This document shows positions 1 through 33,931 of a stretch of DNA of 64,000 nt, one piece after another (the first letter of the stretch is position 1; the number at the start of each line of letters is the position of its first letter). The stretch comes from Escherichia phage Eps7. A model generated the notes under the pieces. It did not search any database. It was not told the origin of the DNA and saw only the letters and a program-made list of their open reading frames with translations. The stretch lies in sequence record NC_010583.1; one strand, written 5' to 3'. A program made the translations under genes and the position numbers.

Positions 1-182
1 ATATACTCAGCTTGGATGTAATAATCAGGTACATGATCTTTTGGCAGATTCTTGTTAGTATCATGAACCTCAGCTCTAGCTTCTTCTTCAGAATCAAAAC
101 CACGATACCAGATTTCACCACCCCAGCCACGTTCACTTTCGGTATACTTAACAATGTGTTTCATAAGGTTTTCCTTATTAGT

Positions 183-272
183 TGGAGGAAGGTAATGGAG
201 TCGAACCATCACCATATCGCTACAGCGGGCAGGTTTTCAAGACCTGTTACATACCACTATGTCCTACCTTCC
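183..272 (-). tRNA. tRNA-Ser (anticodon UGA, type II; tentative)
   Basis: Reverse-complement T-arm (aatgg/agtcgaa/ccatc), acceptor halves ggaaggt/accttcc, anticodon hairpin caggt-tttcaag-acctg, long variable arm, encoded CCA (TGG 183-185). Confidence 0.6.
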
Positions 273-279
273 AGTTGTT

Positions 280-370
280 TGGCGGAAGAAGAGAGATTCG
301 AACTCTCAAGCCGTTTTACCAGTCAGCCACTTTCCAAGCGGTTTTCGTCACCTAATCGATTTGCTCTTCC
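280..370 (-). tRNA. tRNA, type II (possibly Ser, anticodon GGA)
   Basis: T-arm gagag/attcgaa/ctctc, acceptor ggaagaa/ctcttcc, long variable region, loop tttccaa in imperfect anticodon stem. Confidence 0.5.
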
Positions 371-544
371 GTAGATCTCAGGATTAAATCATAAACTTCA
401 TTAGCGGATACTGGAAGTATGAGATTATACATCTTTTGGTCATACCTCTGACCATACTCTATAAACACATACTCTTTAGTTAATGTATTAACAGCTAACC
501 AGATATCAGTTATAGGAGTTTTCATCATGAGTTAATCCAATGTT

Positions 545-625
545 TGGTAGGGATGGAGGGACTCGAACCCACACCCGAAGACTAGAATCTAAATCTAGCG
601 CGTCTGCCAATTTCGCCACATCCCC
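545..625 (-). tRNA. tRNA (anticodon UAG? Leu-like with short variable arm; uncertain)
   Basis: T-arm gaggg/actcgaa/cccac, acceptor agggatg/catcccc, perfect hairpin ctaga-atctaaa-tctag. Confidence 0.5.
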
Positions 626-632
626 ATTTTAT

Positions 633-851
633 TTAGTTAGAAATAAATAATAATCCCGCAACAATGGAACCTACGCCACTGAACACCATTATCAGCATAG
701 CTTCTAAGCTGATAAAGCGGACAGTATATGGAGCGCCCCAAGAATAATCAGTAAAGAAAGTTTTCTTTTCTTTAGCTAAATCTTTAACAGTTCTAAAATA
801 GATAGCTAGTGCTAAAGCTGCAAGAACTATAGAGGCTGCTAAGAATACCAT
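633..851 (-). CDS. small hydrophobic membrane protein (72 aa)
   Basis: ORF with two predicted TM-like hydrophobic stretches; position between tRNAs. Confidence 0.35.
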   Translation of the reverse strand: MVFLAASIVLAALALAIYFRTVKDLAKEKKTFFTDYSWGAPYTVRFISLEAMLIMVFSGVGSIVAGLLFISN

Positions 852-870
852 ATTATTTCCTTAATTTGTT

Positions 871-946
871 TGGTGGAGTCACTCAGAATTGAACTGAGTT
901 CCACTGCTTGCAAGGCAGTAAGTTTAACCAAATAACCTATGACCCC
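871..946 (-). tRNA. tRNA-Ala (anticodon UGC; tentative)
   Basis: T-arm ctcag/aattgaa/ctgag, acceptor ggagtca/tgacccc, anticodon hairpin actgc-ttgcaag-gcagt. Confidence 0.6.
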
Positions 947-952
947 GAATTT

Positions 953-1031
953 TGGTGGAGAATAACGGAATCGAACCGTTCTGATGTCCTCGGTGCAAGC
1001 GAGGTGTCCACTCCATGCAGACCCATTCCCC
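953..1031 (-). tRNA. tRNA (anticodon also reads UGC; identity uncertain)
   Basis: T-arm aacgg/aatcgaa/ccgtt, acceptor ggagaat/attcccc, hairpin cctcg-gtgcaag-cgagg; 7-nt variable loop. Confidence 0.5.
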
Positions 1032-1040
1032 AAAATTTAT

Positions 1041-1304
1041 TTATTCTCTATACATATCGAGAACAGTTGCTACAATCTGAGCTTCTAGCCTAGCAATATC
1101 TTTATTCACTATATCAGATTCTACTACTAAGTGATTATATATTGCTTCAGTTTTAGCAAGATCTACATCAGATAGTTTATTAAGACTATTATAATACTTA
1201 GCATTATTGCAACGTTTCTTCATATCGGAAACTCGTTTATGGAGTGTTCTTTGTTGATAACGTTGTGACATTAGTTTCTTAGCCATATCTTTCAGATCAA
1301 ACAT
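1041..1304 (-). CDS. hypothetical protein (87 aa)
   Basis: ORF downstream of a ~230-nt leader from the promoter cassette at 1545-1592. Confidence 0.4.
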   Translation of the reverse strand: MFDLKDMAKKLMSQRYQQRTLHKRVSDMKKRCNNAKYYNSLNKLSDVDLAKTEAIYNHLVVESDIVNKDIARLEAQIVATVLDMYRE

Positions 1305-1544
1305 GGATATTCCTTCTAGTTTACTAAGGCTATTAGCTCGGTGTGCGTATTACCCTCAGACATTAGCCAGTAGAGGATAATCGCTCTTCACAAACCCGAT
1401 ACACTATTCAGTTGCCGCTGAATCTAGCGGACTAATCTAGAACTTCTCCCGAGTCGTAGGGATCGTGCTTTTTTGGCAGCCAGTCCTAGGTCGAGCTAAT
1501 ACCTTAGTGAACTTTGATGAGGATTTCTCCTCATCAATTTATAT

Positions 1545-1592
1545 AAATATTATAACAAGAAATTAAGCATCAAGCAAGTACATTTTTAGCGA
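1545..1592 (-). promoter_or_regulatory. T5-type early promoter cassette (sigma70-like)
   Basis: On minus strand: A-rich UP, -35 CTTGCT, 17-nt spacer, -10 TATAAT, conserved leader ATTTATATAAATTGATGAGGAG. Confidence 0.55.
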
Positions 1593-1929
1593 TTTCTTGT
1601 AGTTCCTTAACGTCGCTAACGAAAAGGTAATCAGAGCTTCCAGAGTGCATACTCTGCATAACCACACCACCATCCGGTGCATCTTCTTTCAGTGTGATAC
1701 CTAACCAGAACTCGGCAAAACTAGGTGTTACCTCACCTTGACTTGCCTTGAACACATCGCCTTCTGTGATCTCTTGACCAGTGGAGAGTCCCATGTATGG
1801 TACGTTCAGATCAATATCTTTGTAGAACTCAGCTAGATCTTGCTCGAAATCCCAACCTTTAGAGATAGCGAACTCCATTGTTACATGACCGAAATAGCCT
1901 TGAACCTTGCTTGATAATTGCATTTGCAA
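1570..1929 (-). CDS. hypothetical protein (119 aa)
   Basis: ORF, protein-like composition. Confidence 0.5.
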   Translation of the reverse strand: MQMQLSSKVQGYFGHVTMEFAISKGWDFEQDLAEFYKDIDLNVPYMGLSTGQEITEGDVFKASQGEVTPSFAEFWLGITLKEDAPDGGVVMQSMHSGSSDYLFVSDVKELQEIAKNVLA

Positions 1930-1948
1930 TTCCTTATTTTGAGTTAAT

Positions 1949-2021
1949 TGGTACTCGGTGATAGAATCGAACTATCGCAACCGCCGTGTAAAGACGGGGT
2001 TCTCCCATTAAACTAACCGAG
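1949..2021 (-). tRNA. tRNA-Val (anticodon UAC; tentative)
   Basis: T-arm gatag/aatcgaa/ctatc, acceptor actcggt/accgagc, anticodon arm ccgcc-gtgtaaa-gacgg. Confidence 0.55.
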
Positions 2022-2026
2022 CAATT

Positions 2027-2104
2027 TGGTGGATTGCCTGGGATTCGAACCCAGAACTGACGGATTAAAGGTCCGCTACTCTTATCCAGTTGAGCTAGCA
2101 ATCC
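2027..2104 (-). tRNA. tRNA (anticodon not resolved; possibly Lys UUU)
   Basis: T-arm ctggg/attcgaa/cccag, acceptor ggattgc/gcaatcc perfect; anticodon arm ambiguous. Confidence 0.5.
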
Positions 2105-2490
2105 AATTTTTCTACTAATAATTTAAAAGCATCTAGTACAGGTACTTCAAACCATTCTCCAGATACTCTATAATCTTTAAGAAGATTATGTAATTCTTTC
2201 TCTGTACGTCTTTTATCCGACGAAAATCTGAAATGGTATAGCTTGTAGTCTCTATTAGGTGAATAAGTTTGATAACTTGTTAACCTCTCATTCACATCTA
2301 TAGTCATACCTATTTTATACATGCCTGGCCATGCTGGATTACCAATTACATATACAAAACCTTCCGTTATAGGTATTTTATGCTCCCTTTTATACTTTAA
2401 GAGATTTAAGGCTGCCATTCGATAACAGAATCTAAACTCTGAAGTTTTTAACTTACCTTCTTTACCTGAAATTTCGTTATATTTGCTCAT
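2095..2490 (-). CDS. GIY-YIG-like (T5orf172-type) domain protein
   Basis: Motifs GFVYVIGNP...YKIGMT...R...Y...E resemble the GIY-YIG/T5orf172 nuclease fold; embedded in tRNA cluster. Confidence 0.5.
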   Translation of the reverse strand: MSKYNEISGKEGKLKTSEFRFCYRMAALNLLKYKREHKIPITEGFVYVIGNPAWPGMYKIGMTIDVNERLTSYQTYSPNRDYKLYHFRFSSDKRRTEKELHNLLKDYRVSGEWFEVPVLDAFKLLVEKLDC

Positions 2491-2556
2491 ATAAGCTCTT
2501 ATGAGCTTATCATCTATAATGAAGTTATCAGGAAGGTTTAAGGCAGCTAAAAACTT

Positions 2557-2721
2557 TATTAATTAGCATAGACTTCCTTAATAGAATAAACTTTTAAGTT
2601 AAGGTGATTAATACCAAATTCCGCCATCACTTCGTTTTCATCTTTACCGTAATGGGCTAGTGGATACTTCTTACGATCTTTGCTAGAACGTAGATCACTT
2701 ACTTTTAAACGAAATAATTTC
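2557..2721 (-). CDS. hypothetical small protein (54 aa)
   Basis: ATG-initiated ORF MKLFRLKVSDLRS... found by manual translation; below the 60-aa ORF-track cutoff. Confidence 0.3.
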
Positions 2722-2743
2722 ATTTCGAAATCCTTCTATTAAA

Positions 2744-2820
2744 TTGGAAGCGGGTGCAGGAATCGAACCTACCTCTTTCTAGCTTATGAGACTAGCGATC
2801 TCTACCAGAGATCTAACCCG
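2744..2820 (-). tRNA. tRNA with CAU anticodon (Met or Ile-lysidine; tentative)
   Basis: T-arm gcagg/aatcgaa/cctac, acceptor agcgggt/acccgca, anticodon arm ctagc-ttatgag-actag. Confidence 0.55.
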
Positions 2821-2827
2821 CAATTGT

Positions 2828-2906
2828 TTGGTCTCCGTGGGAGGATTTGAACCCCCCGACCCTATCGCCCCAAACGAAACGCTCTGGCCAAACTGAGCTA
2901 CACGGA
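2828..2906 (-). tRNA. tRNA-Pro (anticodon UGG; tentative)
   Basis: T-arm ggagg/atttgaa/ccccc, acceptor ctccgtg/cacggag perfect, D-arm gctc...gagc, loop ccccaaa. Confidence 0.55.
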
Positions 2907-2934
2907 GAATATTCTTTGTTAACTCACTTTATAA

Positions 2935-2992
2935 ATATATTATACAGAGAATTAAGCTAAATAGCAACTACATTTTTAATAAATTTACTTAT
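2935..2992 (-). promoter_or_regulatory. T5-type early promoter cassette driving tRNAs at 2744-2906
   Basis: RC shows -35 GTTGCT, spacer, -10 TATAAT, conserved leader; tRNA begins about 30 nt downstream. Confidence 0.55.
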
Positions 2993-3212
2993 TAGGTAAG
3001 TCACCGAGCTATCAACTCATGCTAGCGAAAGTTTGCGAGACCTTCTTTAAGTACTAGAACACACCCGCCGATGTGTCGGACTTACTTAATAAGTAAACTT
3101 TCGTTTACTTACACCTACCTGGTCGGGAGGATTTTCAGCGACTAGAACCGGCCGGAAACTCATCGCCTTGTTTATCTAGGAGTCCGTTCTCTAGGAAGCA
3201 GAAACCTAAATT

Positions 3213-3287
3213 TGGTGCGGTCGGAGGGAATCGAACCCTCAACTTCTGGTTGGCAACCAAAAAATTATACCTTTTAACTACGAACGC
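3213..3287 (-). tRNA. tRNA-Gly (anticodon GCC; tentative)
   Basis: T-arm gaggg/aatcgaa/ccctc, acceptor gcggtcg/cgaacgc, anticodon arm tctgg-ttggcaa-ccaaa. Confidence 0.55.
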
Positions 3288-3295
3288 ATAATAAG

Positions 3296-3500
3296 TCAAT
3301 CTAGGCAGGACTTGAACCTGCTATCACTTGTGCGGATTTACGAGAACCATTCTTTCACTCGAATCGAACGAGCTTCTACCCTCGGCAAGCTGGTGTCCCC
3401 TCTCCACCACGCTAGAATGATAATTAATGCCTGCTCCTTTGAATCAAGAAGTCCACCCCGGACTTTGGGTCTTTGCAGTACATCACGCTGCTCTGATGTT
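3296..3500 (-). other. tRNA-like elements (T-arm hairpins without complete cloverleaf); possible tRNA pseudogenes or small ncRNA
   Basis: Two strong T-arm-like hairpins (gcagg-acttgaa-cctgc at 3306-3322; actcg-aatcgaa-cgagc at 3357-3373) but no matching acceptor stem found by eye. Confidence 0.3.
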
Positions 3501-3576
3501 TGGTACACCCACTAGGACTTGAACCTAGAACCCTCCGCTTAAGAGGCGGTAGCTCTAACCATTGAGCTATGGATGT
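3501..3576 (-). tRNA. tRNA (possibly Lys, anticodon CUU)
   Basis: T-arm ctagg/acttgaa/cctag perfect, D-arm gctc...gagc, acceptor acaccca/tggatgt, loop ttaagag. Confidence 0.5.
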
Positions 3577-3654
3577 ATTATTATGTTTTGCAGTGCTCTA
3601 AATATAGACACTTCCCACGCGGTGGTTATCTATACCAGCGTCCTGCAAAAATTG

Positions 3655-3731
3655 GCGCGACCGATGGGATTCGAACCCACATTTTCTCCCGTGACAGGGG
3701 AGTACCATTACCAAGCCAGCCCCGATCGCAT
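3655..3731 (-). tRNA. tRNA-Asp (anticodon GUC)
   Basis: T-arm atggg/attcgaa/cccac, acceptor gcgaccg/cgatcgc, perfect anticodon arm ctccc-gtgacag-gggag. Confidence 0.65.
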
Positions 3732-3752
3732 AATTTATTTACTCAGTTTTGA

Positions 3753-3936
3753 GTTTTTCGATAGCTTCCTCAACCTCTTTTAGAGCTTCACGACGGGCAT
3801 TCTGTTGCTGCATATCTTGAATTAATGTCAGTTTTTGTTTTTAATTTCTTGATCCCAAACCTTAATATTATTAATCAGACTATCACGATCAGCTTCTAGT
3901 CGAGCAATTGCACGAGTTGTCATATCTATTTCCTCA
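3753..3936 (-). CDS. hypothetical small coiled-coil protein (about 60 aa, apparent frameshift)
   Basis: Two short adjacent ORFs (MTTRAIARLEADRD... and ...MQQQNARREALKEVEEAIEKLKTE) join across an A5CA5 tract; manual translation only. Confidence 0.25.
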
Positions 3937-4025
3937 GTTATTAATGAAAATGGTATCTGTGACTGAATTCAATATCAGTAATGATAGCTGGTTGGCTACC
4001 GGTTTACTTAACTCTACACAGAATA

Positions 4026-4108
4026 TGGCGGGCCGTGTAGGATTCGAACCTACGTTGTCTTTCGACATGGATTAACAGTCCACCGCCAAACCGCTTGGCT
4101 AACGACCC
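4026..4108 (-). tRNA. tRNA with 13-nt variable arm; anticodon reads GUU (Asn?)
   Basis: T-arm gtagg/attcgaa/cctac perfect, acceptor gggccgt/acgaccc, anticodon arm atgga-ttaacag-tccac, variable hairpin gtc-tttc-gac. Confidence 0.5.
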
Positions 4109-4115
4109 TAAAATT

Positions 4116-4191
4116 TGGACGACCGCATGAGATTCGAACTCACATAAGGAGGTTTTGCAGGCCTCCGCCTAAGCCATTCAGCCAACGGTCG
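4116..4191 (-). tRNA. tRNA-Cys (anticodon GCA; tentative)
   Basis: T-arm atgag/attcgaa/ctcac, acceptor cgaccgc/acggtcg, anticodon arm gaggt-tttgcag-gcctc. Confidence 0.55.
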
Positions 4192-4369
4192 AGTTATCTT
4201 GCTTTTCGAGATTAGTAAACTCTAGATCTTTAGAATGTCCTATAGATCTAGCATAATAGCCATCTCCAGCATCATAGCCTGACTTACCACACTCACACAT
4301 CTTAAACTCTCTATAACGAGTGAAAATATGTTCAGAACCACAACACTTAAATTTAACTAACATTTTCAT
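4178..4369 (-). CDS. Cys-rich small protein (63 aa), putative zinc ribbon
   Basis: KFKCCGSEH...CECGKSG cysteine pattern; 3' end overlaps tRNA by about 14 nt. Confidence 0.4.
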   Translation of the reverse strand: MKMLVKFKCCGSEHIFTRYREFKMCECGKSGYDAGDGYYARSIGHSKDLEFTNLEKQDNSTVG

Positions 4370-4608
4370 TTAACACGCTCCGGTAAATCTTCGAGTTTAT
4401 ATTGAGTAGCCACATTAGCAGCATCTAGTAACAAACCCATATGTTTAAGAATCCTAGTGATAGCTTCGCCTTCTGCTTCTTCTACAAAAGTGCGTAGTTG
4501 AATGAAGTCAATACCACCATCCATACCAGAGAAAATGTTAAGTAAGCGAAGCATTACCAGCTTACGTTCTTTTAATTCTTGTTCTGCCATGTTGCTTCTC
4601 CAGTTCAA
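4366..4608 (-). CDS. hypothetical protein (80 aa)
   Basis: ORF directly downstream of promoter cassette 4625-4672; ATGA overlap with next gene. Confidence 0.45.
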   Translation of the reverse strand: MNWRSNMAEQELKERKLVMLRLLNIFSGMDGGIDFIQLRTFVEEAEGEAITRILKHMGLLLDAANVATQYKLEDLPERVK

Positions 4609-4624
4609 TTTATGTAATAATTAT

Positions 4625-4672
4625 ACAGAACTTTAAGGATTTAAGCAACTACATTTTTCAGAAATTTGATGC
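4625..4672 (-). promoter_or_regulatory. T5-type early promoter cassette
   Basis: RC: -35 GTTGCT, -10 TATAAT, conserved leader. Confidence 0.5.
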
Positions 4673-4928
4673 CTTTCTTTTTCTTCTTATACTTCCACGT
4701 TAATGGATTCTGTCGATTATGAACGCTTGAGATCTTTGTCTCGTCAAATTTCTTCAATACCATGTAATCACACGCCAACTGCTCTAGTGGAATGGTTTCT
4801 CCATCAAAAGCATAAACATAAGGCTGTTGACTAGCACGATAATGATAGACTTTGTTAACTCTACGTTTCAGCGACTTATCCGCGCAGTAAATAAAGAAGT
4901 TTTCAGGATGCATCAGCATCTCCTTCAA
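4641..4928 (-). CDS. hypothetical protein (95 aa)
   Basis: ORF; lysine-rich C-terminus overlaps the downstream promoter cassette. Confidence 0.4.
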   Translation of the reverse strand: MKEMLMHPENFFIYCADKSLKRRVNKVYHYRASQQPYVYAFDGETIPLEQLACDYMVLKKFDETKISSVHNRQNPLTWKYKKKKKGIKFLKNVVA

Positions 4929-5011
4929 ATTGGTGCAACCTGTACGTAACGATCGTACCTCTTCTCCTTTTCAGGGAGACGCTAATCCATCTCAGCTAAA
5001 GTCGCAAATAT

Positions 5012-5088
5012 TGGCAAACCTACTAGGACTCGAACCTAGACCGTACGGTTTTGGAGACCGACATGCTGTCCAGTAACACTCTAGGAAT
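5012..5088 (-). tRNA. tRNA-Trp (anticodon CCA; tentative)
   Basis: T-arm ctagg/actcgaa/cctag perfect, anticodon arm acggt-tttggag-accga; acceptor pairing imperfect. Confidence 0.5.
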
Positions 5089-5096
5089 GCAGAAAT

Positions 5097-5172
5097 TGGC
5101 GTCCTGTGCGGGGATCGAACCCGCAAATCCTACCTTGAAAGGGTAGTGACTTTACCAGTTTGTCTAACAGGA
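5097..5172 (-). tRNA. tRNA-Glu (anticodon UUC)
   Basis: T-arm gcggg/gatcgaa/cccgc, acceptor gtcctgt/acaggac perfect, anticodon arm ctacc-ttgaaag-ggtag perfect. Confidence 0.65.
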
Positions 5173-5180
5173 CTTAAATT

Positions 5181-5271
5181 TGGTGTTGGATGATGGAGTC
5201 GAACCACCCGAGACCCTTCCGAGTCGGCAGATTTACAGTCTGCTTCGCTACCTCTACGATACTAATCCAAC
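5181..5271 (-). tRNA. tRNA-Tyr (anticodon GUA, type II)
   Basis: T-arm gatgg/agtcgaa/ccacc, acceptor gttggat/atccaac perfect, anticodon arm gcaga-tttacag-tctgc perfect, long variable arm. Confidence 0.65.
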
Positions 5272-5416
5272 ATATTTGAATGAAAAATAAGTCGGTTAAA
5301 CTCAAGGTGGAATATTTCAGGAAATCCTGACTTTACCCCTAAAAGCAACTCGCTTAGTTACTTCTCATTCAGATATGTTTTCCAAATTAGATAACTATTA
5401 TATCAAGTTTTGAAGG

Positions 5417-5452
5417 ACTGAGCAAGTCAAATTTTAAAGAACTTGCTCAGTG
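5417..5452 (-). terminator. intrinsic terminator hairpin (11-bp stem)
   Basis: actgagcaagt ... acttgctcagt inverted repeat immediately downstream of the 5462-5737 gene. Confidence 0.45.
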
Positions 5453-5461
5453 CTATATCAG

Positions 5462-5737
5462 TTACTCGAAGCTAGGAGTGACACTCAGTTTGAATGGAAG
5501 CTCGAACACTTCTTCATAATCATCATTGAGCGTAATTACACGACCTTCTAGCTTAGTCATGGTGATTTCGATATCAGCCTCTGCATCAGGAGCCATACCA
5601 GCTTCCACACATTTAGCTTTGACTTCCGGCAGAAGTTCTACATCGTAGAAATAAAGCCATTCAATCTCACCTTCCCAGCCACCCCAGGATTTACAAACAG
5701 CACTTTCAACACCAGTTGCAGTAACACGTTTTGACAT
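5462..5737 (-). CDS. hypothetical protein (91 aa)
   Basis: ORF downstream of promoter cassette 5775-5815. Confidence 0.5.
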   Translation of the reverse strand: MSKRVTATGVESAVCKSWGGWEGEIEWLYFYDVELLPEVKAKCVEAGMAPDAEADIEITMTKLEGRVITLNDDYEEVFELPFKLSVTPSFE

Positions 5738-5774
5738 TCGTTAACTCCTTCATCAATTTATATAACTATTATAG

Positions 5775-5815
5775 CAGAAATCTTAAGTAAAAAGCAAGTA
5801 CATTTTTAAAATTTC
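5775..5815 (-). promoter_or_regulatory. T5-type early promoter cassette
   Basis: RC: -35 CTTGCT, -10 TATAAT, conserved leader. Confidence 0.5.
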
Positions 5816-5827
5816 TGCTTGGAGGAG

Positions 5828-6034
5828 TTAAACTCCTGATTCTTCAGCCAGATCAAGCCCAACCAACGTGATTGCCATAATAGCCGCGCCATGTTCTTTC
5901 TCTCCTAGCTCTTTGGCTTGAGTGAGAATATTTAGGAACTGCTTTTGAAAATCTGCAACTTCTTCTGTCATGCCTGCTTCAGCAATAATTCCTTTCAGCA
6001 TAAAGCGTTGTGCCGTAATTTCAGGATTAGCCAT
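5828..6034 (-). CDS. hypothetical protein (68 aa)
   Basis: ORF. Confidence 0.45.
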   Translation of the reverse strand: MANPEITAQRFMLKGIIAEAGMTEEVADFQKQFLNILTQAKELGEKEHGAAIMAITLVGLDLAEESGV

Positions 6035-6185
6035 TTATTATCTCCAGTTATTTAGAATGTAAGCCAAACTTAGGATCATAGCGATCGTAAGTCGTACCAT
6101 TAGTTGAAGCCTTGATGCTATGAAAACGACAGTACATAAATTTACGTAGTGCTTTCTTAATAGCTTTCATTTTATTTCCTTAATT

Positions 6186-6262
6186 TGGTAGGGGTGGTGG
6201 GATTCGAACCCACAAAACCTGAATTTTAAGTCCAGTACCTATGCCAATTCGATTACACCCCC
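6186..6262 (-). tRNA. tRNA (anticodon reads UAA, Leu-like but type I; uncertain)
   Basis: T-arm gtggg/attcgaa/cccac perfect, acceptor aggggtg/caccccc, anticodon arm ctgaa-ttttaag-tccag. Confidence 0.5.
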
Positions 6263-6280
6263 ATGTAATCTTAGCGAATC

Positions 6281-6603
6281 TCTAAACCCTGGAAATATCG
6301 AGGGAATGGAGAGCCAACTTCAAAATTGATGCCCCAATTAAGTTCAACGAGTTCAGATTTATTAAGATCTAGGCCATTACCTTCAAAGATATAGCCGTAA
6401 ACCGCAGGGAACATAGCTGCTAGATCTTCCATATCGGAATGAGCATTGTGTTCTTCACGGAACTGCTCAACTCTTCAATAGAACTTTTCTAGGAGACTCA
6501 GGTACGATGAACGTTACCACATCAGTAGAATCATCGGTACGATACACCGTAGCTTGGAACAAGCCAACACCTAAAAGGTTTATTGCCGGAGTAGTAAAAA
6601 TAT
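6281..6603 (-). CDS. hypothetical protein (about 107 aa, apparent +1 frameshift near 6470)
   Basis: Two sub-threshold ORFs (MDIFTTPAINLLG... and ...EQFREEHNAHSDMEDLAAMFPAVYGYIFEGNGLDL...) in adjacent frames. Confidence 0.3.
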
Positions 6604-6608
6604 CCATC

Positions 6609-6794
6609 TTAGCCTCGCTCAATGTCTAGACAAATTGCATATTCAGGGTTGATACCAGTACCTTTACATGTAGGACATTCCCATTCTCTACAGAAAATAT
6701 CCCCAGGTTCTGCATCATCCTGCCTACCACTACCATGACAGTCCTTACACCGACATTCTTCTAATGCTTTCTTCATTTCATAGAATCTAGACAT
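6609..6794 (-). CDS. DnaJ-type zinc-finger mini-protein (61 aa)
   Basis: Two CxxCxGxG motifs (CKDCHGSG, CPTCKGTG) plus additional Cys pairs. Confidence 0.45.
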   Translation of the reverse strand: MSRFYEMKKALEECRCKDCHGSGRQDDAEPGDIFCREWECPTCKGTGINPEYAICLDIERG

Positions 6795-6811
6795 ATAGTC
6801 TCCTAGTTAAT

Positions 6812-6889
6812 TGGTGGCTCCCGGAGGATTCGAACCTACCTACCTTTCGCTTATGAGGCGACGGCTCATACCAAATGAGCTTGAGAACC
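6812..6889 (-). tRNA. tRNA with CAU anticodon (Met or Ile-lysidine; tentative)
   Basis: T-arm ggagg/attcgaa/cctac, D-arm gctc...gagc, anticodon arm ttcgc-ttatgag-gcgac. Confidence 0.55.
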
Positions 6890-6894
6890 AAATT

Positions 6895-6988
6895 TGGAGG
6901 AAGATGCCAGATTCGAACTGGCACACCGTGTCTCCACAGCTACTGGCTGTTTAGCAAACAGCTCCCTTACCTTTAGGGTTAATCTTCC
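6895..6988 (-). tRNA. tRNA-Ser (anticodon GCU, type II)
   Basis: T-arm gccag/attcgaa/ctggc perfect, acceptor ggaagat/atcttcc perfect, anticodon arm gctgt-ttagcaa-acagc perfect, long variable arm. Confidence 0.65.
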
Positions 6989-6999
6989 GAATTTATGAA

Positions 7000-7045
7000 T
7001 ATATTATACAGAAAATTTCGGCATTAAGCAAGTGAAATTTTACTG
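7000..7045 (-). promoter_or_regulatory. T5-type early promoter cassette driving tRNAs at 6812-6988
   Basis: RC: -35 CTTGCT, -10 TATAAT, conserved leader. Confidence 0.5.
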
Positions 7046-8134: not shown

Positions 8135-9176
8135 AGATAAAGTGATGAATCAGCCAGTCTACTGCGTTTACTGCTTCGTCCATACGAACTTTGTAGTCCG
8201 GAGAGTCGATGTAAACAGTACGCCCTTCAGGGAACTGATTTGGAAATTCTTTCTTCATCTGCTCGAACAGTTCAGAAGTAATTGAACGATCGGAGTTAAT
8301 ACGTAAACCATCATCTACCCACTTGACAGTAGGCGCTAGAACAATTACTAAATCGTAATGTTCTTCTTTTGCAATTGCTGTAACCACAGGGTTCTTACTA
8401 TGTTCATAAAGTCTGTGGTAGAACTCAGTAATAAAAGCATTTGTATCCACAAACATGATCTTATTTGCAGTACGTTTTGCTTCAAACTCTAGCTCTTTGT
8501 GTCTGAACGCAATTTTACTATAGTCTTCGCTGGTAAGCAGATTTTCGTTACCAACTAGATCAACTTCACAATACGTTCGGCCATATTCTTTTACCCACGA
8601 AGTGTTGTATAGCTTCGCAAGGTATTTTGTTAAAGTAGTCTTTCCTGAGCTTTCAGTCCCAATGATTACAACCTTACGCACGTAATCTTTACGAACTACG
8701 CTAGGAAGAAACTCCCAATACTTCATAAGATCATTACGAATCATTGTAGCTGAGATTGGAACACGAGTCCGATCAGAATCTACAATATAATGACCAAACT
8801 TCGGCAGATATTTCTTATATTCTGCATCATAGTCTAGTTCGCTAGAGAAAATGGTGATCTCAGGCAAATGTCCGTAATTTTCATTAAGGATTCTAGCATA
8901 TTCCGGCCAACCATTCGGATATTCAGGAATATCATCTTCAATAATGTACTCTACCGAAATGTGCTCAATATCCGCGTAAGTTTGTTCTAACCAACGAAGT
9001 CGATTCTTTAACTGTAATACTTCCTGATCACGTGTGTTCTGCTTATCCAGCCAACGATTATCATGACTAACTACAACAATAACTCGTTCACACATAGTTG
9101 CTGCTGTGTTTATTAGGTTAATATGACCACGCGTTAATGGCGCGAACTTACCAATTACTAGACCAGTCTTAATCAT
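8121..9176 (-). CDS. nadR: NadR-like bifunctional NMN adenylyltransferase / ribosylnicotinamide kinase
   Basis: N-terminal nucleotidyltransferase motif GKFAPLTRGH (HxGH), C-terminal P-loop GTESSGKTT; true start MIKTGL (track MREESN prefix is leader). Confidence 0.65.
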   Translation of the reverse strand: MIKTGLVIGKFAPLTRGHINLINTAATMCERVIVVVSHDNRWLDKQNTRDQEVLQLKNRLRWLEQTYADIEHISVEYIIEDDIPEYPNGWPEYARILNENYGHLPEITIFSSELDYDAEYKKYLPKFGHYIVDSDRTRVPISATMIRNDLMKYWEFLPSVVRKDYVRKVVIIGTESSGKTTLTKYLAKLYNTSWVKEYGRTYCEVDLVGNENLLTSEDYSKIAFRHKELEFEAKRTANKIMFVDTNAFITEFYHRLYEHSKNPVVTAIAKEEHYDLVIVLAPTVKWVDDGLRINSDRSITSELFEQMKKEFPNQFPEGRTVYIDSPDYKVRMDEAVNAVDWLIHHFIFGEF

Positions 9177-9202
9177 ATTTGATTCCTCTCTCAAATTTAT
9201 AA

Positions 9203-9250
9203 ATATATTATACAGAGAATTTAGCGTTCAAGCAATCGAATTTTTAAACT
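9203..9250 (-). promoter_or_regulatory. T5-type early promoter cassette (drives nadR-pnuC)
   Basis: RC: -35 ATTGCT, -10 TATAAT, conserved leader with GAGAGAGGAATCAA RBS. Confidence 0.55.
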
Positions 9251-9384
9251 TTTTAGTGGAAAAATCTCAAGGCATTTAGTGGTAGCACGTTGTTGCTACA
9301 ATAATAGTATATGTATTACTAAAGTAAATAAAGAATTAAATACTAAAGACCTTAGTTGAATAACTTATGGGCTTTTCTTTTGCC

Positions 9385-9428
9385 TTAAATACAGAAAAGC
9401 CCGCGCTCTCGGAGGAAACGCGGGCTTG
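9385..9428 (-). terminator. intrinsic terminator (possibly bidirectional)
   Basis: GC-rich hairpin aagcccgcg...cgcgggctt with flanking T/A runs. Confidence 0.5.
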
Positions 9429-9546
9429 GTTCGAAGATTACGTGTAACTATTACTTGTTACGCATATCCATGATCATTTGACCATCGTAGCCAGTACCAA
9501 CAACAGTCTGCGGTACACCACCTTGTATTTTTCAGCACGAAGCATT

Positions 9547-10395
9547 TCAAACTTCCAGCTGCTTCCAACGAATCATTTCAGGAGTAATGGTACGTTGCAG
9601 CGCGGCGTTAGCTTCAGCTTCTTTCTTAGCTGCGTACAGTTTAGCATCTGCGTCACGTTCGTTAGCTACTGCCATGTTTTCACGAGCAGAACGATCAGCT
9701 TCAGCTTGCTTAACTTTCTGCTGTGCTTCTTGTTCAACACGAGCCAATTCAGCTTTAGCGGCGTTAACTTGTTCTTCACGAACTTTTGTGTTTTGTACCT
9801 GTTCCATGATTACAGGTGGCAGAGTAATATCCTGAAGGAATACTTGCTTAACCGTGTAACCATAAGGACGCGCGTACTCTTCTACTTCTTGCTGAATAGC
9901 AGTTTGCAGTTGAGCCTGAATCTTAGCGTCGAACAGATCTTGTGCTTTTGGTACAGACTTACCAAACTCACGAATCGTAGATAGCATCTTCTCTTCAACG
10001 TACTTGTTCAGAGCTTGATCCTGAGTACCTGCGTTAACACGGTTCATAGGAGCTTTAGCACCATCAAACTGCAACATAACGGTAATGTCAACAGTGGACT
10101 TAAACTTATCCTGGCTAGGAACCTGAAGTTTATCCAGTTTCATGGAAATATCTTTCGTACTAAAAGTATCAAAAGAAGCAAATGGGTTAACAATATGGAA
10201 GCCTGGCAATACAGGATTAGGGCTAACTTTACCCAGGAAGGTTTGGGTCTTAACAGTACCATCCTGAACAACTGTGTAGGAATTGAGAGCCAGAATAAGA
10301 GCGCCAAGACCAACTACAGCACCAACACCCCAACGTTTGATAGTGCGAATTACTTTTTGCTCAGAAGTCAGTTCTTTAGTGTTTTTAGTAAACAT
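9547..10395 (-). CDS. SPFH/band-7 (stomatin/prohibitin/HflC-like) domain protein; C-terminus probably extends to about 9451
   Basis: N-terminal TM segment, SPFH-like core, Ala/Glu/Gln-rich coiled-coil tail; two in-frame stops within 30 nt flanking an open alternative frame. Confidence 0.6.
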   Translation of the reverse strand: MFTKNTKELTSEQKVIRTIKRWGVGAVVGLGALILALNSYTVVQDGTVKTQTFLGKVSPNPVLPGFHIVNPFASFDTFSTKDISMKLDKLQVPSQDKFKSTVDITVMLQFDGAKAPMNRVNAGTQDQALNKYVEEKMLSTIREFGKSVPKAQDLFDAKIQAQLQTAIQQEVEEYARPYGYTVKQVFLQDITLPPVIMEQVQNTKVREEQVNAAKAELARVEQEAQQKVKQAEADRSARENMAVANERDADAKLYAAKKEAEANAALQRTITPEMIRWKQLEV

Positions 10396-10406
10396 ATATT
10401 TCCTTA

Positions 10407-10607
10407 TTATTTAGAAGAGTTAGCTACTACAGTTACTTTAGTTGCAGAAATAAACAGGCTAGCATCCACAGCAAATTCAGGAGCTTTGATATCTCCATTA
10501 TGAAATATGACTATACCGGAGACTACTTCAAATGCTAGTGCTGTAACATCGGTGGTATTTACTTGTGAATGTTCACCTACTACTTTTACTATATATCGTG
10601 TTTTCAC
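10407..10607 (-). CDS. NfeD-like short OB-fold protein (66 aa), partner of SPFH protein
   Basis: Beta-rich 66-aa protein (YIVKVVGEHSQV...) immediately upstream of and co-oriented with the SPFH gene. Confidence 0.4.
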   Translation of the reverse strand: MKTRYIVKVVGEHSQVNTTDVTALAFEVVSGIVIFHNGDIKAPEFAVDASLFISATKVTVVANSSK

Positions 10608-10633
10608 TTTATTTTCCTAGCAGTTAATAAAAT

Positions 10634-10709
10634 TGGCCGAGGTGACAGGATTCGAACCTGCATAAAGGAATTTAGAAGACTCCTGCCTATCCCTTAGACT
10701 ACACCCCGT
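10634..10709 (-). tRNA. tRNA-Arg (anticodon UCU; tentative)
   Basis: T-arm acagg/attcgaa/cctgc, acceptor cgaggtg/caccccg, anticodon arm ggaat-ttagaag-actcc. Confidence 0.6.
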
Positions 10710-11791
10710 TTAGGTATTTTTAAGAACTCTTATAAAAGCTCTTAAAGATACCCGACGGTAGGTAGGGTCAGCCCCCTCAGATTAAGCTCTGCAGCCCTTC
10801 CGTCAGACAATATCTTCCAGTTTAAGTCAGGGTGACTTTGTGGTTATGTTCTCCGTATGTGAAGAACTCGGTTAGGCTTAGGTCATGACTCCCAGCCTAC
10901 TGCTGCCACTCAACAGGAATTATCGCGAATTACCTGTACTATTGGGCACCATTAGTGACATCTCTCATGTCAGCGTTTCCCACTCTCATATTCACGCGGT
11001 CTGTTAGAATCGCACCTCCGATTTTCGATGCGAAGCTGGATGCCTAGTCTCAGGTTAAACGGGGCACACACTAGGCAGTGATCCCGAGTTCCGAGTTTGG
11101 TTGAGGCCGTCAGGTTTCCTCGTGGTTTAGCTGTTTCGATTCTAACCTAATACTGATCAGGTGGCGTACCTCCTGAACCGTCATAGTATGTACTCCAGCA
11201 GCGAATGCTTATCCGGTATAAGCCCGAGTTATCCGATTCTTTCCAGAAGGAGCAGTAAAGCTCAATGTCAGCCTGTGAGCATCTGGCAGTGTTATCACAT
11301 AAGTCAGTTCGACACCCCACATTTTAGTGCCTGGTAGATCCCGAATGAAGCCCTCAGTCGTTAGACCTCCATCATTCATCAAAGATTTACGCTACCCACT
11401 ATTCGATGGACAATCGCCGCATTGTGGTATACATACGTTTTCACTTGCATCCTAGACGGGTCAGCGTTGAAAGTTATATGGGTTTCTCAAGCCCAACCTT
11501 CAGTCTTCTACCCCTGGGACACGCACCGTATTTCACACTGTGCCTAGCTCCTGTTGAGACCCATCGTTTTGTATAAATTAGAGAAGAGTTTAGAGGAGAG
11601 GTTTCAGACGCCTCATTTTACAAGAAGTCTCGAACCTATATTCGTTACTCTAGTCACTTGGCCGGATATACCGGACTGGACTCGGAACTCTAACAGGTGA
11701 TCATTCTTAACCCACCGACTCTATTCAGTGTCAGAAGCTATCACTAGGTGAATCGCTAAAGCTCACTCAGCGTAATCGGCTCGCTGTTCTC
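10710..11791 (-). ncRNA. candidate large structured non-coding RNA (about 1.05 kb), co-transcribed with tRNA-Arg
   Basis: No ORF of 60 aa or more in any frame over about 1.1 kb; stops dense in all frames; GC visibly higher than flanking genes; conserved promoter cassette at 5' end, tRNA at 3' end. Confidence 0.3.
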
Positions 11792-11838
11792 TAATTTATG
11801 AATCTATTATACAGAATTTTGGAACGTTTAGCAAATCA
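11792..11838 (-). promoter_or_regulatory. T5-type early promoter cassette driving the ORF-free region and tRNA-Arg
   Basis: RC: -35 TTTGCT, -10 TATAAT, conserved leader start; no ATG or RBS follows. Confidence 0.5.
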
Positions 11839-11842
11839 ATTT

Positions 11843-12286
11843 TTAATTAAATTCGCCAGCAACCTGAGCAGCAATGCCACCATCGTAACGACCAGGAAAC
11901 TCTTCCTTAATCGCTTTCATCAGCATACCCTTTGTAATCCCAGGATTCAACTTAACTAATTCTGCAAAGTATTTGCGAATCTCAGAATCAGATAACTGAG
12001 GCGGCAGATACTGTTGTAGCCATTTGTTCAGTATATATTCATACTGAGCAGACTGCAAGCTATAATTATCAAGGTCTTGACCGTGAAGTTTAGCTTTTGT
12101 CTGATTAATGCTTTTCAGTTGAGCTTTTAGATAAGATACAAACTGTTCAGAAGTAATGAAGTCTTTATCAACACGCTGAAGATCTCCGATTATAGTCTGG
12201 TAGCTTTTAGCTACTTCTTTATCAGAACCATCAACCTTAGATTCCTGCAAAGCCCTACGCAAAACATCTAGAATATTCTCTTCCAT
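11843..12286 (-). CDS. GatB/YqeY domain protein
   Basis: 147-aa protein with YqeY-like C-terminal motif NPGITKGMLMKAIKEEFPGRYDGG. Confidence 0.55.
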   Translation of the reverse strand: MEENILDVLRRALQESKVDGSDKEVAKSYQTIIGDLQRVDKDFITSEQFVSYLKAQLKSINQTKAKLHGQDLDNYSLQSAQYEYILNKWLQQYLPPQLSDSEIRKYFAELVKLNPGITKGMLMKAIKEEFPGRYDGGIAAQVAGEFN

Positions 12287-12290
12287 TATT

Positions 12291-12461
12291 TAATTCCCAG
12301 TGCTTGGTTAAAAGATTGTTCTGTCATAACTGCCGAGACTTTAGCGAAATCAAACTTCTTAGGGTTTGTAGTAATTTCAGCAACGTTAGTAGTTTTAACT
12401 GTTTTCGTAGTACGGATACCACGAGTATTAACACCAATAATTACAACTGATTTCATATTTC
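12291..12461 (-). CDS. hypothetical small protein (56 aa)
   Basis: ATG ORF MKSVVIIGVNTRG... immediately after the leader of cassette 12475-12520; manual translation. Confidence 0.4.
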
Positions 12462-12474
12462 GCTTCCTCTCATT

Positions 12475-12520
12475 AATTTATGAAAGTATTATACAGAAAT
12501 TTAAGGCTTTAAGCAATCGA
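12475..12520 (-). promoter_or_regulatory. T5-type early promoter cassette
   Basis: RC: -35 ATTGCT, -10 TATAAT, leader ...AATTAATGAGAGGAAG. Confidence 0.5.
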
Positions 12521-12524
12521 ATTT

Positions 12525-12992
12525 TTAAGTTTTCTTAACCACAGGCTTGTAGAACGTATGGCCTTGAATCTTCGTTGTTTTCTTAAACTTCTTTGTCCAG
12601 TACGGTTTATCTTTACCACTATGGAAGTATAACGCTCCATGTGTTGGATCTTGTGGTAAATCAACGTAGTATATCACTCTAGCTAAATTCTTAGCAACTT
12701 GCCAAGCCTCATCGGTTTTATCAACTTTTGGTCTCTTGGCCACCCAAGAGAACTGGTTAGACTGATATACTACTTTACAGTAAGAATCAGGAAAGTACCA
12801 GAGTTAACACGGTTTTTTAGTAACCTGTGCAACTGCGATCATTCCTTTAGTGCCCTCACCTCGTGCTTCGAAGTAGATATTTTTTGCAATGCAATCAATC
12901 TGCTTTGAGTCGTAGGTCGCATGACTATTGAAGCTATAGGTTAGGGCAGCTATTAAAAGCAAAGCTGCCTTCATTTTATTTACTCCGGCCAA
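12525..12992 (-). CDS. SleB/CwlJ-like cell-wall hydrolase with signal peptide (two apparent frameshifts)
   Basis: N-terminal signal peptide plus NIYFEARGE...AVAQV; middle ...NRVNSG.F.DSYCKVVYQSNQFSW and C-terminal ...ALYFHSGKDKPYW recovered across tracts at 12813-12818 and 12790-12791. Confidence 0.5.
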
Positions 12993-13297
12993 TCGTACTC
13001 AATACGATTAGGGCTTTCTTGATACCCTTCGTCTAAGAGATCATTACGCATGGTCTCTTTAGCTACTGGGTTCGAGGTTACTAGTACCACTTTCTTGGGT
13101 CTCTGACCAAATTCTAGGAGTAAACGAAGAATTTGATAACCTTCCATACCATCTACAGCCAGATCGTTATCCATATAAACGAAATGACCTGTGGTATCGG
13201 TTTTATTCAGAAACTCAATAGCGGCTTCGGGGGTTCGAATGATAATGTCCATTCCATGAAGGTTACGTACATCATCAATCAGAATATGAAAAATCAT
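12980..13297 (-). CDS. CheY-like receiver-fold protein (105 aa), function unknown
   Basis: Pattern ...IDDVRN...YMDNDL...G...KVVLVTSNP resembles a receiver (REC) domain. Confidence 0.4.
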   Translation of the reverse strand: MIFHILIDDVRNLHGMDIIIRTPEAAIEFLNKTDTTGHFVYMDNDLAVDGMEGYQILRLLLEFGQRPKKVVLVTSNPVAKETMRNDLLDEGYQESPNRIEYDWPE

Positions 13298-13323
13298 AAT
13301 AGCCTCGTCTCATCAATTTAAAA

Positions 13324-13372
13324 ATATATTATACAGAAAACTAAACTAATTAGCAAATACATTTTTAAATTG
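13324..13372 (-). promoter_or_regulatory. T5-type early promoter cassette
   Basis: RC: -35 TTTGCT, -10 TATAAT, conserved leader. Confidence 0.5.
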
Positions 13373-13736
13373 AGAGACTAGTAAACCGATAAACAGCCTA
13401 GAGGCGCCACAGGCCATATCTTATGAGCCATGTACCTTTGATCTAGGGTTTGAATCATCAACGAATACTTTGCATCTTTTAGCTTTAGAAGGTTAGAAGT
13501 TTGAGTTCTTTTAACTTTTCAGCTTTCATACTTGAGCGTTGATCTTTGAAGTTGTGTTGGTACTACCAACGACCGTTTTTACAGTTCAGCTTAAGAGGCT
13601 GGTGTAATAAACATAATCTCCAATAGATTATACTTTATAGTATGGTCAGCGGTCTTATTTAACCTCGTATTTCAACCGCTGCTGCGAGGTAAGATGCTTG
13701 GGCTTTCGTCTACCGATTTACTAGTCTTTTAAATTA

Positions 13737-14612: not shown

Positions 14613-15385
14613 AATTATTTTCCTTTTGTTGTTCTCTCAAATTTATGAATATATTATACAGAATTTGGAGCTGAAAGCAAATCAAATTTTGATTTTTTTC
14701 GATCATGATGGCTACACAATAACTTTCAACTAAAGCATCGAATGCGGGATCATGTTTCACTGGATAGATTCCATAACGAATGGTATCCATCTTTTCCATT
14801 TTAGCTTTTGCCCAGCTAGCACCTTCGGCTTCTAGATCTTTATAGCTATAACCAGCTTGCATCCACTGATTACGGAAAGATCGAACGTTACCTAAGTTCC
14901 AGAATTTCCACGGAACTATTTCTTCATGGGTTCCGGCATGGAACGTATTTGCAGAGTAGATTGTCATATCAAACTCTGGGCCATTGCCGTAATACAGAGC
15001 ATTATCTCCTAGAGACAATTCCATAATGTTCTGAGCCATAGAGAAGGCAGCATAATTAGAGCCTACGTCATTAGTGCAGTGATGCTTACCATCACGGAAG
15101 GCAATCAGTTTAGGATTACGACCATTTAGAGCCTCCATAATATGGAGCGCAGATGGACTGTTTTTTAGCTTGATCCATCCAGAATGCAATAGTAGAGGCA
15201 GTTACCTTAGCACCCGCATTAAGCTGATCTTGAACGTCTAGAGTAACGAATACCAGATCAGGATCTTTATCAATTCCGTGCATCGCTACAAAAGCGAAAG
15301 AAGGCATTGCAATATGAGTAGTACCGCAATTTCCTGGAGTACCTAGAGATTCAATGTCCAGCATACCAAAGGGCTTGAATTTCAT
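14599..15385 (-). CDS. DEDDh-family 3'-5' exonuclease-like protein (frameshifted at T6 tract 15161-15166)
   Basis: Exo I-like LDIESLG, later H-x4-D (HDPAFD); two ORFs join when the A6 run on the coding strand is shortened to A5. Confidence 0.5.
14650..14695 (-). promoter_or_regulatory. T5-type early promoter cassette
   Basis: RC: -35 TTTGCT, -10 TATAAT, conserved leader. Confidence 0.5.
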
Positions 15386-24204: not shown

Positions 24205-24267
24205 TATGCAAGTACAATTTTACAGATAAAAAGAGCCCGGATATTTTCATACCCAGGCTCGTCTGTC

Positions 24268-29462: not shown

Positions 29463-29464
29463 AT

Positions 29465-29893: not shown

Positions 29894-29902
29894 GGAGGCA
29901 GA

Positions 29903-30298: not shown

Positions 30299-30321
30299 TT
30301 TTCATTAGTCCAATCCTGATT

Positions 30322-30345
30322 ACCGAGTCATTTTGGCTCGGTTTT
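30322..30345 (+). terminator. intrinsic terminator
   Basis: Hairpin accgag...ctcggt followed by TTTTCTCT. Confidence 0.5.
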
Positions 30346-30390
30346 CTCTGTGCTCAAAGACACTGATAGCACCTTACGGAAAAATTTTAC

Positions 30391-33922: not shown

Positions 33923-33931
33923 AAATTTTAT

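Follow-up and report, generated by a model that had tools for sequence, protein, structure and literature searches.

RNAX, a large structured RNA of phage Eps7 and other T5-like phages

The RNAX locus in Eps7 and its relatives

We analysed a 64,000-nucleotide stretch of DNA from Escherichia phage Eps7 (NC_010583.1; the whole stretch is called the window below), and in it a segment of about 1 kb that lies on the minus strand between an early promoter and a gene for tRNA-Arg. An initial annotation, made from the DNA letters, had marked positions 10710-11791 as a candidate large structured noncoding RNA (ncRNA), undescribed so far and co-transcribed with the tRNA. Homology identifies the segment as the Epseptimavirus ortholog of the T5 RNA 'RNAX', which is annotated but uncharacterised. 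The pattern of substitutions among its homologs shows selection on secondary structure across essentially the whole length of the RNA.

The segment is free of open reading frames (ORFs) of 60 amino acids (aa) or more, as the initial annotation had it: the longest ORF in the six frames of 10710-11791 has 58 aa. The RNAX region is flanked by ORFs of 66 aa (10407-10607) and 147 aa (11843-12286), the latter with homologs that are YqeY-like (PF09424). The elevated GC content noticed earlier is also real, at 0.46-0.50 over 10700-11750 versus 0.33-0.41 on either flank. An early promoter was recovered at the 5' end and tRNA-Arg directly downstream, both as proposed (Table 1). The promoter is the counterpart of the annotated 'promoter P16-17' of the T5 and BF23 records, and this cassette heads every homolog, directly after the upstream gene. 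All 21 tRNA genes found by ARAGORN in the window (1-7000 and 10634-10708) are on the minus strand. The query region is 99.8% identical to that of the Epseptimavirus Klebsiella phage 150049, and over an aligned 6.4 kb around it the identity is 99.0%.

We take the promoter and the initial transcribed sequence (TATAATAGATTCATAAATT...) to be like classical T5 early promoters such as PN25, and therefore place the start of the RNA most likely at ~11799, the A of CATAAAT, 7 nucleotides (nt) past the -10 element. The RNA would most likely run from there to ~10709-10712 (10709 if it is cut at the tRNA), a length of ~1,088 nt. The ORF-free unit of about 1 kb that had been proposed stands, with its 5' edge moved 8 nt further upstream. 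No terminator-like site was found on the minus strand down to 10300, neither ahead of tRNA-Arg nor beyond it.

Table 1. Position of RNAX, its domains and adjoining features in the window.
Feature	Position in window	Strand	Position in RNA	Description
Early sigma-70 promoter	11806-11834	minus		-35 TTGCTA (11834-11829), 17-nt spacer, -10 TATAAT (11811-11806); consensus scan, 10/12 matches
5' domain	11573-11799	minus	1-227	closed by the RNA's own 5' end
Middle domain	11322-11572	minus	228-478	multi-helix sub-domain, then long irregular hairpin
Core arm	11199-11321	minus	479-601	12-bp interrupted helix, tip stem-loop, hairpin
Connector	10986-11198	minus	602-814	UAAACCAC (11122-11129) and conserved block 10993-11035
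3' domain	10712-10985	minus	815-1088	GUGG/CCAC helix (10980-10983 with 10840-10843) around five hairpins
First self-complementary loop	10882-10889	minus		GUCAUGAC, in 8-nt apical loop (AGUCAUGA) of hairpin 10875-10897
Second self-complementary loop	10923-10928	minus		UCGCGA, apical loop of hairpin CAGG..CCUG (10914-10936)
tRNA-Arg(UCU)	10634-10708	minus		ARAGORN; Rfam tRNA 49.3 bits; directly downstream of the RNA

By blastn the region is present in 521-525 of 50,697 phage records, all of them T5-like. Three of these, BF23, DT57C and T5, carry it as a misc_RNA, rnaX, 'stable RNA with unknown functions', so the orthologous stretch was not wholly undescribed. In the BF23 record of the tRNA region rnaX has 784 nt, with 'promoter P16-17' before it and tRNA-Arg after it; in the DT57C record it has 636 nt; and in the T5 reference genome it is T5s08, 719 nt (40848-41566), ending one base ahead of tRNA-Arg. 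The layout of YqeY-like gene (T5.081 in T5), promoter, RNA and tRNA-Arg is the same in the three phages and the window. The window matches rnaX of BF23 and DT57C by blastn, with 82.6% identity in an alignment of the last ~350-360 nt; the promoter and a 36-nt core block are homologous as well, and T5 rnaX is linked to the window through the homolog in Erwinia phage KEY. The annotated RNAs differ from the 1,088 nt of the window in length. T5 rnaX is without the full 5' domain and the middle domain, and rnaX of T5, BF23 and DT57C carries an embedded tRNA-like element that the window has lost. The rnaX records give no structure or function, full-text searches (RNAX, T5 stable RNAs, T5 transcriptomes) found no paper on RNAX and no RNA-seq or Northern data for it, and Rfam 15 has no family for it. 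Other records leave the region blank or fill it with short hypothetical proteins on either strand.

Covariation and domain structure

A whole-length RNAalifold model of six collinear sequences gave useful local helices together with very long-range pairs that were not credible, and we therefore assessed covariation domain by domain, with shuffles (n = 500) and with displaced ('slid') pairing partners as controls. In the core arm (25 sequences, 30 pairs) 92.8% of cells are paired, versus 33-43% when slid, and half of the pairs (15/30) have changed on both sides, which none of the shuffles reached; the covariation score is 0.357, versus 0.163 in shuffles. The stems of the tip element and the next hairpin were part of this test, and helix 1 of the arm is paired in 99.7% of cells. 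The middle domain (6 sequences, 78 pairs) has 94.4% of cells paired versus 33-42% slid, 15 pairs changed on both sides (0/500 shuffles) and a score of 0.244 versus 0.154. For the 3' domain, with 55 pairs in nine helices from 18 sequences, the corresponding values are 95.0% versus 35-46%, 10 pairs (5/500 shuffles) and 0.134 versus 0.091. In these three tests the observed score was reached by 0/500 shuffles. The 5' domain (18 sequences) has 27 predicted pairs, 4 of which have changed on both sides. Comparison of the homologs supports about 190 base pairs in the four domains, and with compensatory changes in every one of them it supports the central proposal of the initial annotation, a large structured ncRNA on the minus strand.

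The modelled pairs contain 130 G·U cells versus 14 A·C cells. Selection therefore acts on the RNA read from the minus strand, and neither on the DNA nor on the opposite strand. A DNA-level element, such as a replication origin, a nick site, a packaging signal or a set of protein-binding palindromes, might be invoked in view of the palindromes present and of the site-specific nicks in T5 DNA, one of which the BF23 record marks ~1.1 kb downstream. We give this reading very little weight, since the excess of G·U is sensible only for the minus-strand transcript, a strong promoter stands exactly at the head of the RNA in every relative, and palindromes are depleted overall.

A decayed protein gene or a set of small coding sequences (CDS) is just as improbable. 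Automated annotations do place short 'hypothetical proteins' here, but these vary in strand and position from record to record, and the observed changes are compensatory within helices. Variable sites are spread evenly over the three phases (89/94/95, p = 0.89), with no third-position periodicity; the contrast between codon-pattern and compensatory substitution that the initial annotation had suggested examining came out for the latter. We compared 45 distinct homologous regions (640-1292 nt). Their longest stop-free stretches measure 60-136 aa, save in three phages that carry an HNH gene (160 aa). These regions hold no conserved intact ORF that would mark the Eps7 copy as a decayed gene. In four records, TrudiGerster, Roth49, Uniso31 and K7_rec13, 2-5 short 'hypothetical proteins' are annotated inside RNAX on both strands; one of them is named 'putative tail protein', and none is conserved between records. 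The short proteins annotated inside RNAX are probably spurious.

The 5' domain is closed by a helix between the 5'-terminal AUAAAUUAGAGAA (11787-11799) and UUCUCUAAUUUAU (11573-11585); in the RNAalifold model of 18 sequences its first 15 nt are paired with 11573-11588. Indels in this helix co-occur on both strands (none in 9/18 sequences, an insertion in 8/18, a deletion in 1/18). Of the inner hairpins, CAGCG..CGCUG (11768-11786) and CACUGA..UCGGUG (11713-11730) are conserved, and the others are lineage-specific. Pectobacterium phage My1 has CAGCA/UGCUG in place of CAGCG/CGCUG. In T5 and DT57C the interior of the domain is gone and the closing helix is kept as a simple hairpin, with compensatory changes in the T5-type helix such as AGAG/CUCU to GAUG/CAUC. 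The middle domain is found in some lineages and is absent from T5, BF23 and DT57C.

The helix of the core arm joins the conserved 36-nt block (11285-11320) to a GAUAACU block (11223-11242) and is followed by the hairpin GCUUAU..AUAAGC (11207-11223). In the connector, UAAACCAC is likely the 3' strand of a GUGG/CCAC helix closing the core domain; in My1 both sides of the core-closing helix are altered, GUGG to ACGG and CCAC to CCGU. A 43-nt block of the connector (10993-11035), 90-100% identical in Sugarlandvirus, Epseptimavirus and Yersinia phage phiR2-01, holds the hairpin CGCAU..GUGCG. After the enclosed hairpins of the 3' domain follow AAGUCA..UGACUU (10824-10838), a three-way junction (10752-10806) and a conserved 40-nt terminal hairpin (10713-10752) that is long and A/U-rich. 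The junction exists in five sequence-divergent versions, each folding into two inner hairpins behind a closing helix. The single-sequence fold of the 3' domain (-89 kcal/mol, z = -3.3) agrees with the comparative model.

One long-range pairing suggested in the initial annotation did not hold. The 10-nt inverted repeat on which it was based exists (GAGUUCCGAG at 11681-11690, CUCGGAACUC at 11086-11095), but in HMD-P2, NG_S8 and STWB21 the 5' copy is altered while the 3' copy is identical, with no compensation, and pairing of the two is without covariation support. Apart from this pairing and the word 'undescribed', the interpretation given at the outset is supported.

Mosaic homologs and the tRNA-like tip

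About 55 homologs were collected: 20 from GenBank records, 26 from IMG/VR (via the upstream YqeY-like gene) and 12 from a pattern scan of metagenomes. Their length ranges from 640 to 1,292 nt (about 600-660 in KEY and Pantoea phage AAS21) and their GC content from 0.39 to 0.50, and every homolog ends in the same long hairpin. They are built as mosaics of a 5' domain, an optional middle domain, the universal 36-nt block, the 43-nt block, the 3' domain and the terminal part. Of all parts the 3' ~275-330 nt are conserved most widely; the 5' modules form a mosaic. The terminal part is common even to the Klebsiella phages of Sugarlandvirus, in which the RNA is ~1.25-1.29 kb long and an ORF stands between it and tRNA-Arg. 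Distant members come from the phages KEY, AAS21, phiR2-01 and My1.

A covariance model of the core arm, R1, scores 105.8 bits in the window and 90.4 bits (E 6e-20) in My1, a member of the subfamily Mccorquodalevirinae in which the promoter, the 5' hairpin, the 3' motifs and the terminal hairpin are all recognisable. On 50-kb stretches of Vibrio phage pVp-1 and Aeromonas phage AhSzq-1, R1 found true tRNAs only; in these stretches RNAX is either absent or beyond the reach of the model. Weak full-length R1 matches near true tRNAs, such as that at 2707-2858 of the window (17.5 bits), are two adjacent tRNAs and were discarded. A pattern scan of IMG/VR gave only 3 loci. The metagenome scan with an 18-base core pattern gave 24, made up of 12 chance hits and 12 ordinary T5-like contigs, with no new lineage. 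All matches in a search via the neighbouring YqeY-like protein were T5-like, at no less than 43% identity, with no distant relatives among them. The SPFH and SleB neighbours also occur in unrelated phages and are useless as markers.

In the stretches from mar003J3 (492-974), IrmaTschudi (574-1056) and H8 a gene for an HNH homing endonuclease (160 aa) follows the RNAX promoter immediately and takes the place of the whole 5' half of the RNA, and the core arm and 3' domain are retained. These versions are natural 5' truncations, and the locus is a recombination hot spot. T5 and one metagenome contig have a tandem duplication of ~87 nt in the 3' part of RNAX (~4979-5199 of the T5 stretch); the duplicated T5-type 3' domain contains the AGUCNCCNUGACNNAAACUGGAA motif twice and measures 368-371 nt, not 285. 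In My1 the CDS My1_076 (14780-15366 of the My1 stretch) starts right after the terminal hairpin of RNAX and overlaps tRNA-Arg by ~30 nt at its 3' end, a position that matches a 510-nt ORF after RNAX in several Epseptimaviruses. Phage pVp-1 has ~320 nt that are CDS-free and non-tRNA (23900-24220 of the pVp-1 stretch) inside a dense tRNA array; they show no likeness to RNAX by R1 or by motifs, and may be another uncharacterised RNA.

At the end of the core arm most relatives carry a tRNA-like element, 72-85 nt long, whose acceptor stem has 7 bp. Its T arm is canonical (GGUUCGAAUCC) and a D arm is present; the anticodon arm is stunted, and CCA is missing. The element scores 33-39.6 bits with the Rfam tRNA model, above the gathering score of 29 bits, and its acceptor and T stems covary. 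Gene finders label it tRNA-Ser(ACU), tRNA-SeC(UCA), tRNA-Pro, tRNA-Leu or 'tRNA-OTHER', with odd anticodons from ARAGORN. At least four versions of the tip, an ACU-type, a UCA-type, a UGG-type and one with a long variable arm, are swapped between lineages. In the window, as in SH9, STG2 and GSW6, a stem-loop stands in its place; that of the window has 44 nt (CCAGA...UCUGG, 11243-11286) and no special stability (z = -0.76). No tRNA match lies inside 10712-11799, either by ARAGORN or by Rfam at E<=10. The element is swapped out with its surroundings unchanged, and the tip is therefore an exchangeable accessory rather than part of the RNA core.

Transfer RNA mimics inside larger RNAs are known from tmRNA and from the bacterial Y-RNA-like YrlA. 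The arm of most RNAX relatives resembles them: it, too, ends in a mimic of the acceptor and T arms, and its anticodon arm is defective. RNAX differs in being 5-10 times larger, and the copy in the window is without the mimic; ARAGORN detects no tmRNA there, and no Rfam family of the tRNA-mimic kinds matches.

The tip invites the reading that tRNA mimicry is the main function of RNAX, presented on a stable scaffold as a decoy or sponge for tRNA-targeting defence nucleases or processing enzymes. The swapping of at least four tRNA-like tips between lineages would fit arms-race turnover, and tRNAs of T5 counter the PARIS defence (PMC11464382) and, as cited in PMC10644984, the retron Eco7. But the window, SH9, STG2 and GSW6 have lost the element with the rest of the RNA nearly unchanged, the 3' domain and not the tip is the most conserved part, and no defence system is known to be affected. 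We regard mimicry as unlikely to be the main function. A decoy role is possible for the versions that bear the tip; it cannot be the common function.

Another notion is that RNAX only precedes tRNA-Arg in its precursor, as a 5' leader or spacer, or that it is a graveyard left by decayed tRNA genes; it would be transcribed and perhaps stable, with no function of its own. The RNA does sit in a tRNA island directly upstream of tRNA-Arg, its GC content is like that of tRNA genes, and most relatives embed an element above the Rfam tRNA threshold. Adjacency to tRNA-Arg is frequent, however, and not obligatory: several relatives have a CDS in that place, and RNAX persists where tRNA-Arg is missing or where an ORF comes between the two, as in HMD-P2, ende, 1-23, 26175I, STG2, GSW6, Sugarlandvirus and My1. 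Beyond the 72-nt element, which itself has a truncated anticodon arm and no CCA, nothing in the RNA is tRNA-like, with no match in the window even at E<=10, and ~190 base pairs that belong to no tRNA are upheld by compensatory change. We consider a functionless leader or graveyard improbable, somewhat more so than mimicry as the main function.

Self-complementary loops, proposed role and GOLLD/ROOL

Palindromes of at least 6 nt are depleted in the RNA (7 observed versus 16.6 +/- 4.0 in shuffles), and two of them occupy apical loops of the 3' domain (Table 1). The first, GUCAUGAC, is identical in all Markadamsvirinae and Sugarlandvirus versions examined, and the stem beneath it covaries. The second loop, predicted to be apical in every lineage version, changes in sequence: UCGCGA in the window is CGCGCG in T5, CUCGAG in STG2 and 26175I, GUGCGCAC in ende, 1-23 and phiR2-01, CCGCGG in Sugarlandvirus and GUGCAC in My1, with CGCG only in HMD-P2 and KEY. 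An intramolecular partner for the CGCG loop, ACCGCGUG (~10993-11000), was considered and rejected: the lineages with CUCGAG and GUGCGCAC keep this block yet cannot pair with it.

Loops that change while remaining self-complementary have been used to argue for intermolecular kissing loops in GOLLD and OLE, and assembly of ROOL is mediated by conserved kissing loops (bioRxiv 10.1101/2024.12.08.627333). By analogy, and because one loop of RNAX changes between lineages while staying self-complementary, we put forward as a tentative lead that RNAX might self-associate as an RNA-only scaffold, through symmetric kissing of the two loops of the 3' domain. Monomers would join via the invariant GUCAUGAC loop and the lineage-variable second loop. 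In such an assembly the exchangeable 5' modules, like the tRNA-like tip, would serve as displayed or enclosed cargo or decoys that act on the host tRNA/translation machinery or on tRNA-directed defences. That RNAX would in this manner form a class of self-assembling large phage RNAs of its own, the third and independent of GOLLD and ROOL, with exchangeable modules as cargo or decoys, is a conjecture that we hold to be a little more doubtful still.

The resemblance to both RNAs is considerable. RNAX and GOLLD (RF01998) are both large RNAs that phages encode close to tRNA genes, and in both the 3' part is conserved, the 5' part varies, and there are symmetric palindromic loops. RNAX differs in host range and in having no sequence or model similarity, and multimers are shown for GOLLD and hypothesised for RNAX. 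With ROOL (RF03087) it has in common that it is large and ornate, encoded by phages or prophages near tRNA islands, and without a known protein partner; it has another secondary structure, no model match and no identified pseudoknots. The initial annotation had named Rfam searches for GOLLD, ROOL, HEARO and group I/II introns as a check. We scanned Rfam 15 against 9000-13500 of the window at E<=1, against 10600-11850 at E<=10 and against seven diverse relatives at E<=5. The scans gave tRNA matches, plus chance-level CRISPR-DR24 and SNORA44 in the window at E>2, and no covariance-model match to GOLLD, ROOL, HEARO, introns or riboswitches in the window or the seven relatives. In favour of a divergent member of GOLLD or ROOL stand the setting and the layout: encoded by a phage within a tRNA island, conserved toward the 3' end and variable toward the 5' end, with a tRNA inside the variable part. 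Given the result of these scans and the occurrence of RNAX in phages of Enterobacterales, and not in Lactobacillales, marine or rumen sources, we think membership in either family highly improbable. We would class RNAX among the large ornate phage ncRNAs, as a new family or variant outside the GOLLD and ROOL families.

Taking the evidence together, we are fairly confident that the best explanation of the segment is a structured, non-coding RNAX ortholog. By established tRNA biology the RNA would be co-transcribed with tRNA-Arg by read-through, and cleavage by RNase P at the 5' end of tRNA-Arg would release it and set its 3' end one base ahead of the tRNA, the point at which rnaX stops in the T5 record. 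The 40-nt terminal hairpin would then shield the new 3' end from exonucleases. Release by RNase P and shielding by the hairpin would account for the 'stable RNA' annotation. By analogy, RNAX would be a scaffold to which the variable 5' modules and the tRNA-like tip are added as interchangeable accessories, and these may present a tRNA mimic to host tRNA-processing enzymes or tRNA-cleaving defence enzymes. Our best guess is a role early in infection, tied to the tRNA/translation island around the RNA. The viable T5 deletions 30661-38625 and 29191-32442 (PMC11464382) stop short of rnaX at 40848-41566.

Several points weigh against this explanation or against its extension to self-association. 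The label 'stable RNA' comes from the wording of GenBank records. The domain-wise tests cover the RNA on either side of the connector (10986-11198), for which few collinear sequences are available. The tRNA-like element is missing in the window, and mimicry cannot be the core function of this copy. As to the loops, My1 has GUCAUGCC for GUCAUGAC, palindromic in CAUG only, and the shrinkage of the second palindrome to CGCG in HMD-P2 and KEY means that self-complementarity is imperfectly kept. The lineages are related, so the palindrome count is not a clean statistic, and the palindromes could instead be sites for dimeric proteins. The Rfam models of GOLLD and ROOL do not match, and the similarity to these RNAs is one of analogy only.

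Recent work showed that GOLLD and ROOL assemble into cages made of RNA only, whose function is unknown, and their hosts are hard to work with. RNAX is comparably large, heavily structured and tRNA-associated, and it is found in more than 500 sequenced T5-like genomes, with E. coli, Salmonella, Klebsiella and Pectobacterium as hosts. For T5-like phages, phage and host genetics, defence-system panels and deletion collections are at hand. Natural experiments exist as well, in versions from 640 to ~1,290 nt, with and without the tRNA-like tip, and with the 5' half swapped for a homing endonuclease gene. If RNAX did self-assemble, the phenomenon of cage-forming RNA would reach Gram-negative model systems. 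Since a covariance model and a domain map now exist, RNAX can be annotated and the spurious 'hypothetical proteins' can be removed.

Two minor observations concern other parts of the window. The gene for a SleB-like cell-wall hydrolase (12525-12992, minus strand) differs from that of Klebsiella phage 150049 by two indels of 1 nt, a gained A and a lost T at a distance of 24 nt, which create an 8-codon out-of-frame run with a stop (KKPC*LWY, not KNRVNSGT). The gene is thus split into ORFs 12804-12992 and 12525-12743, which may reflect a sequencing error or a true disruption. The tRNA set of the window includes a duplicate tRNA-Ala(UGC) and two tRNA-Met(CAU).

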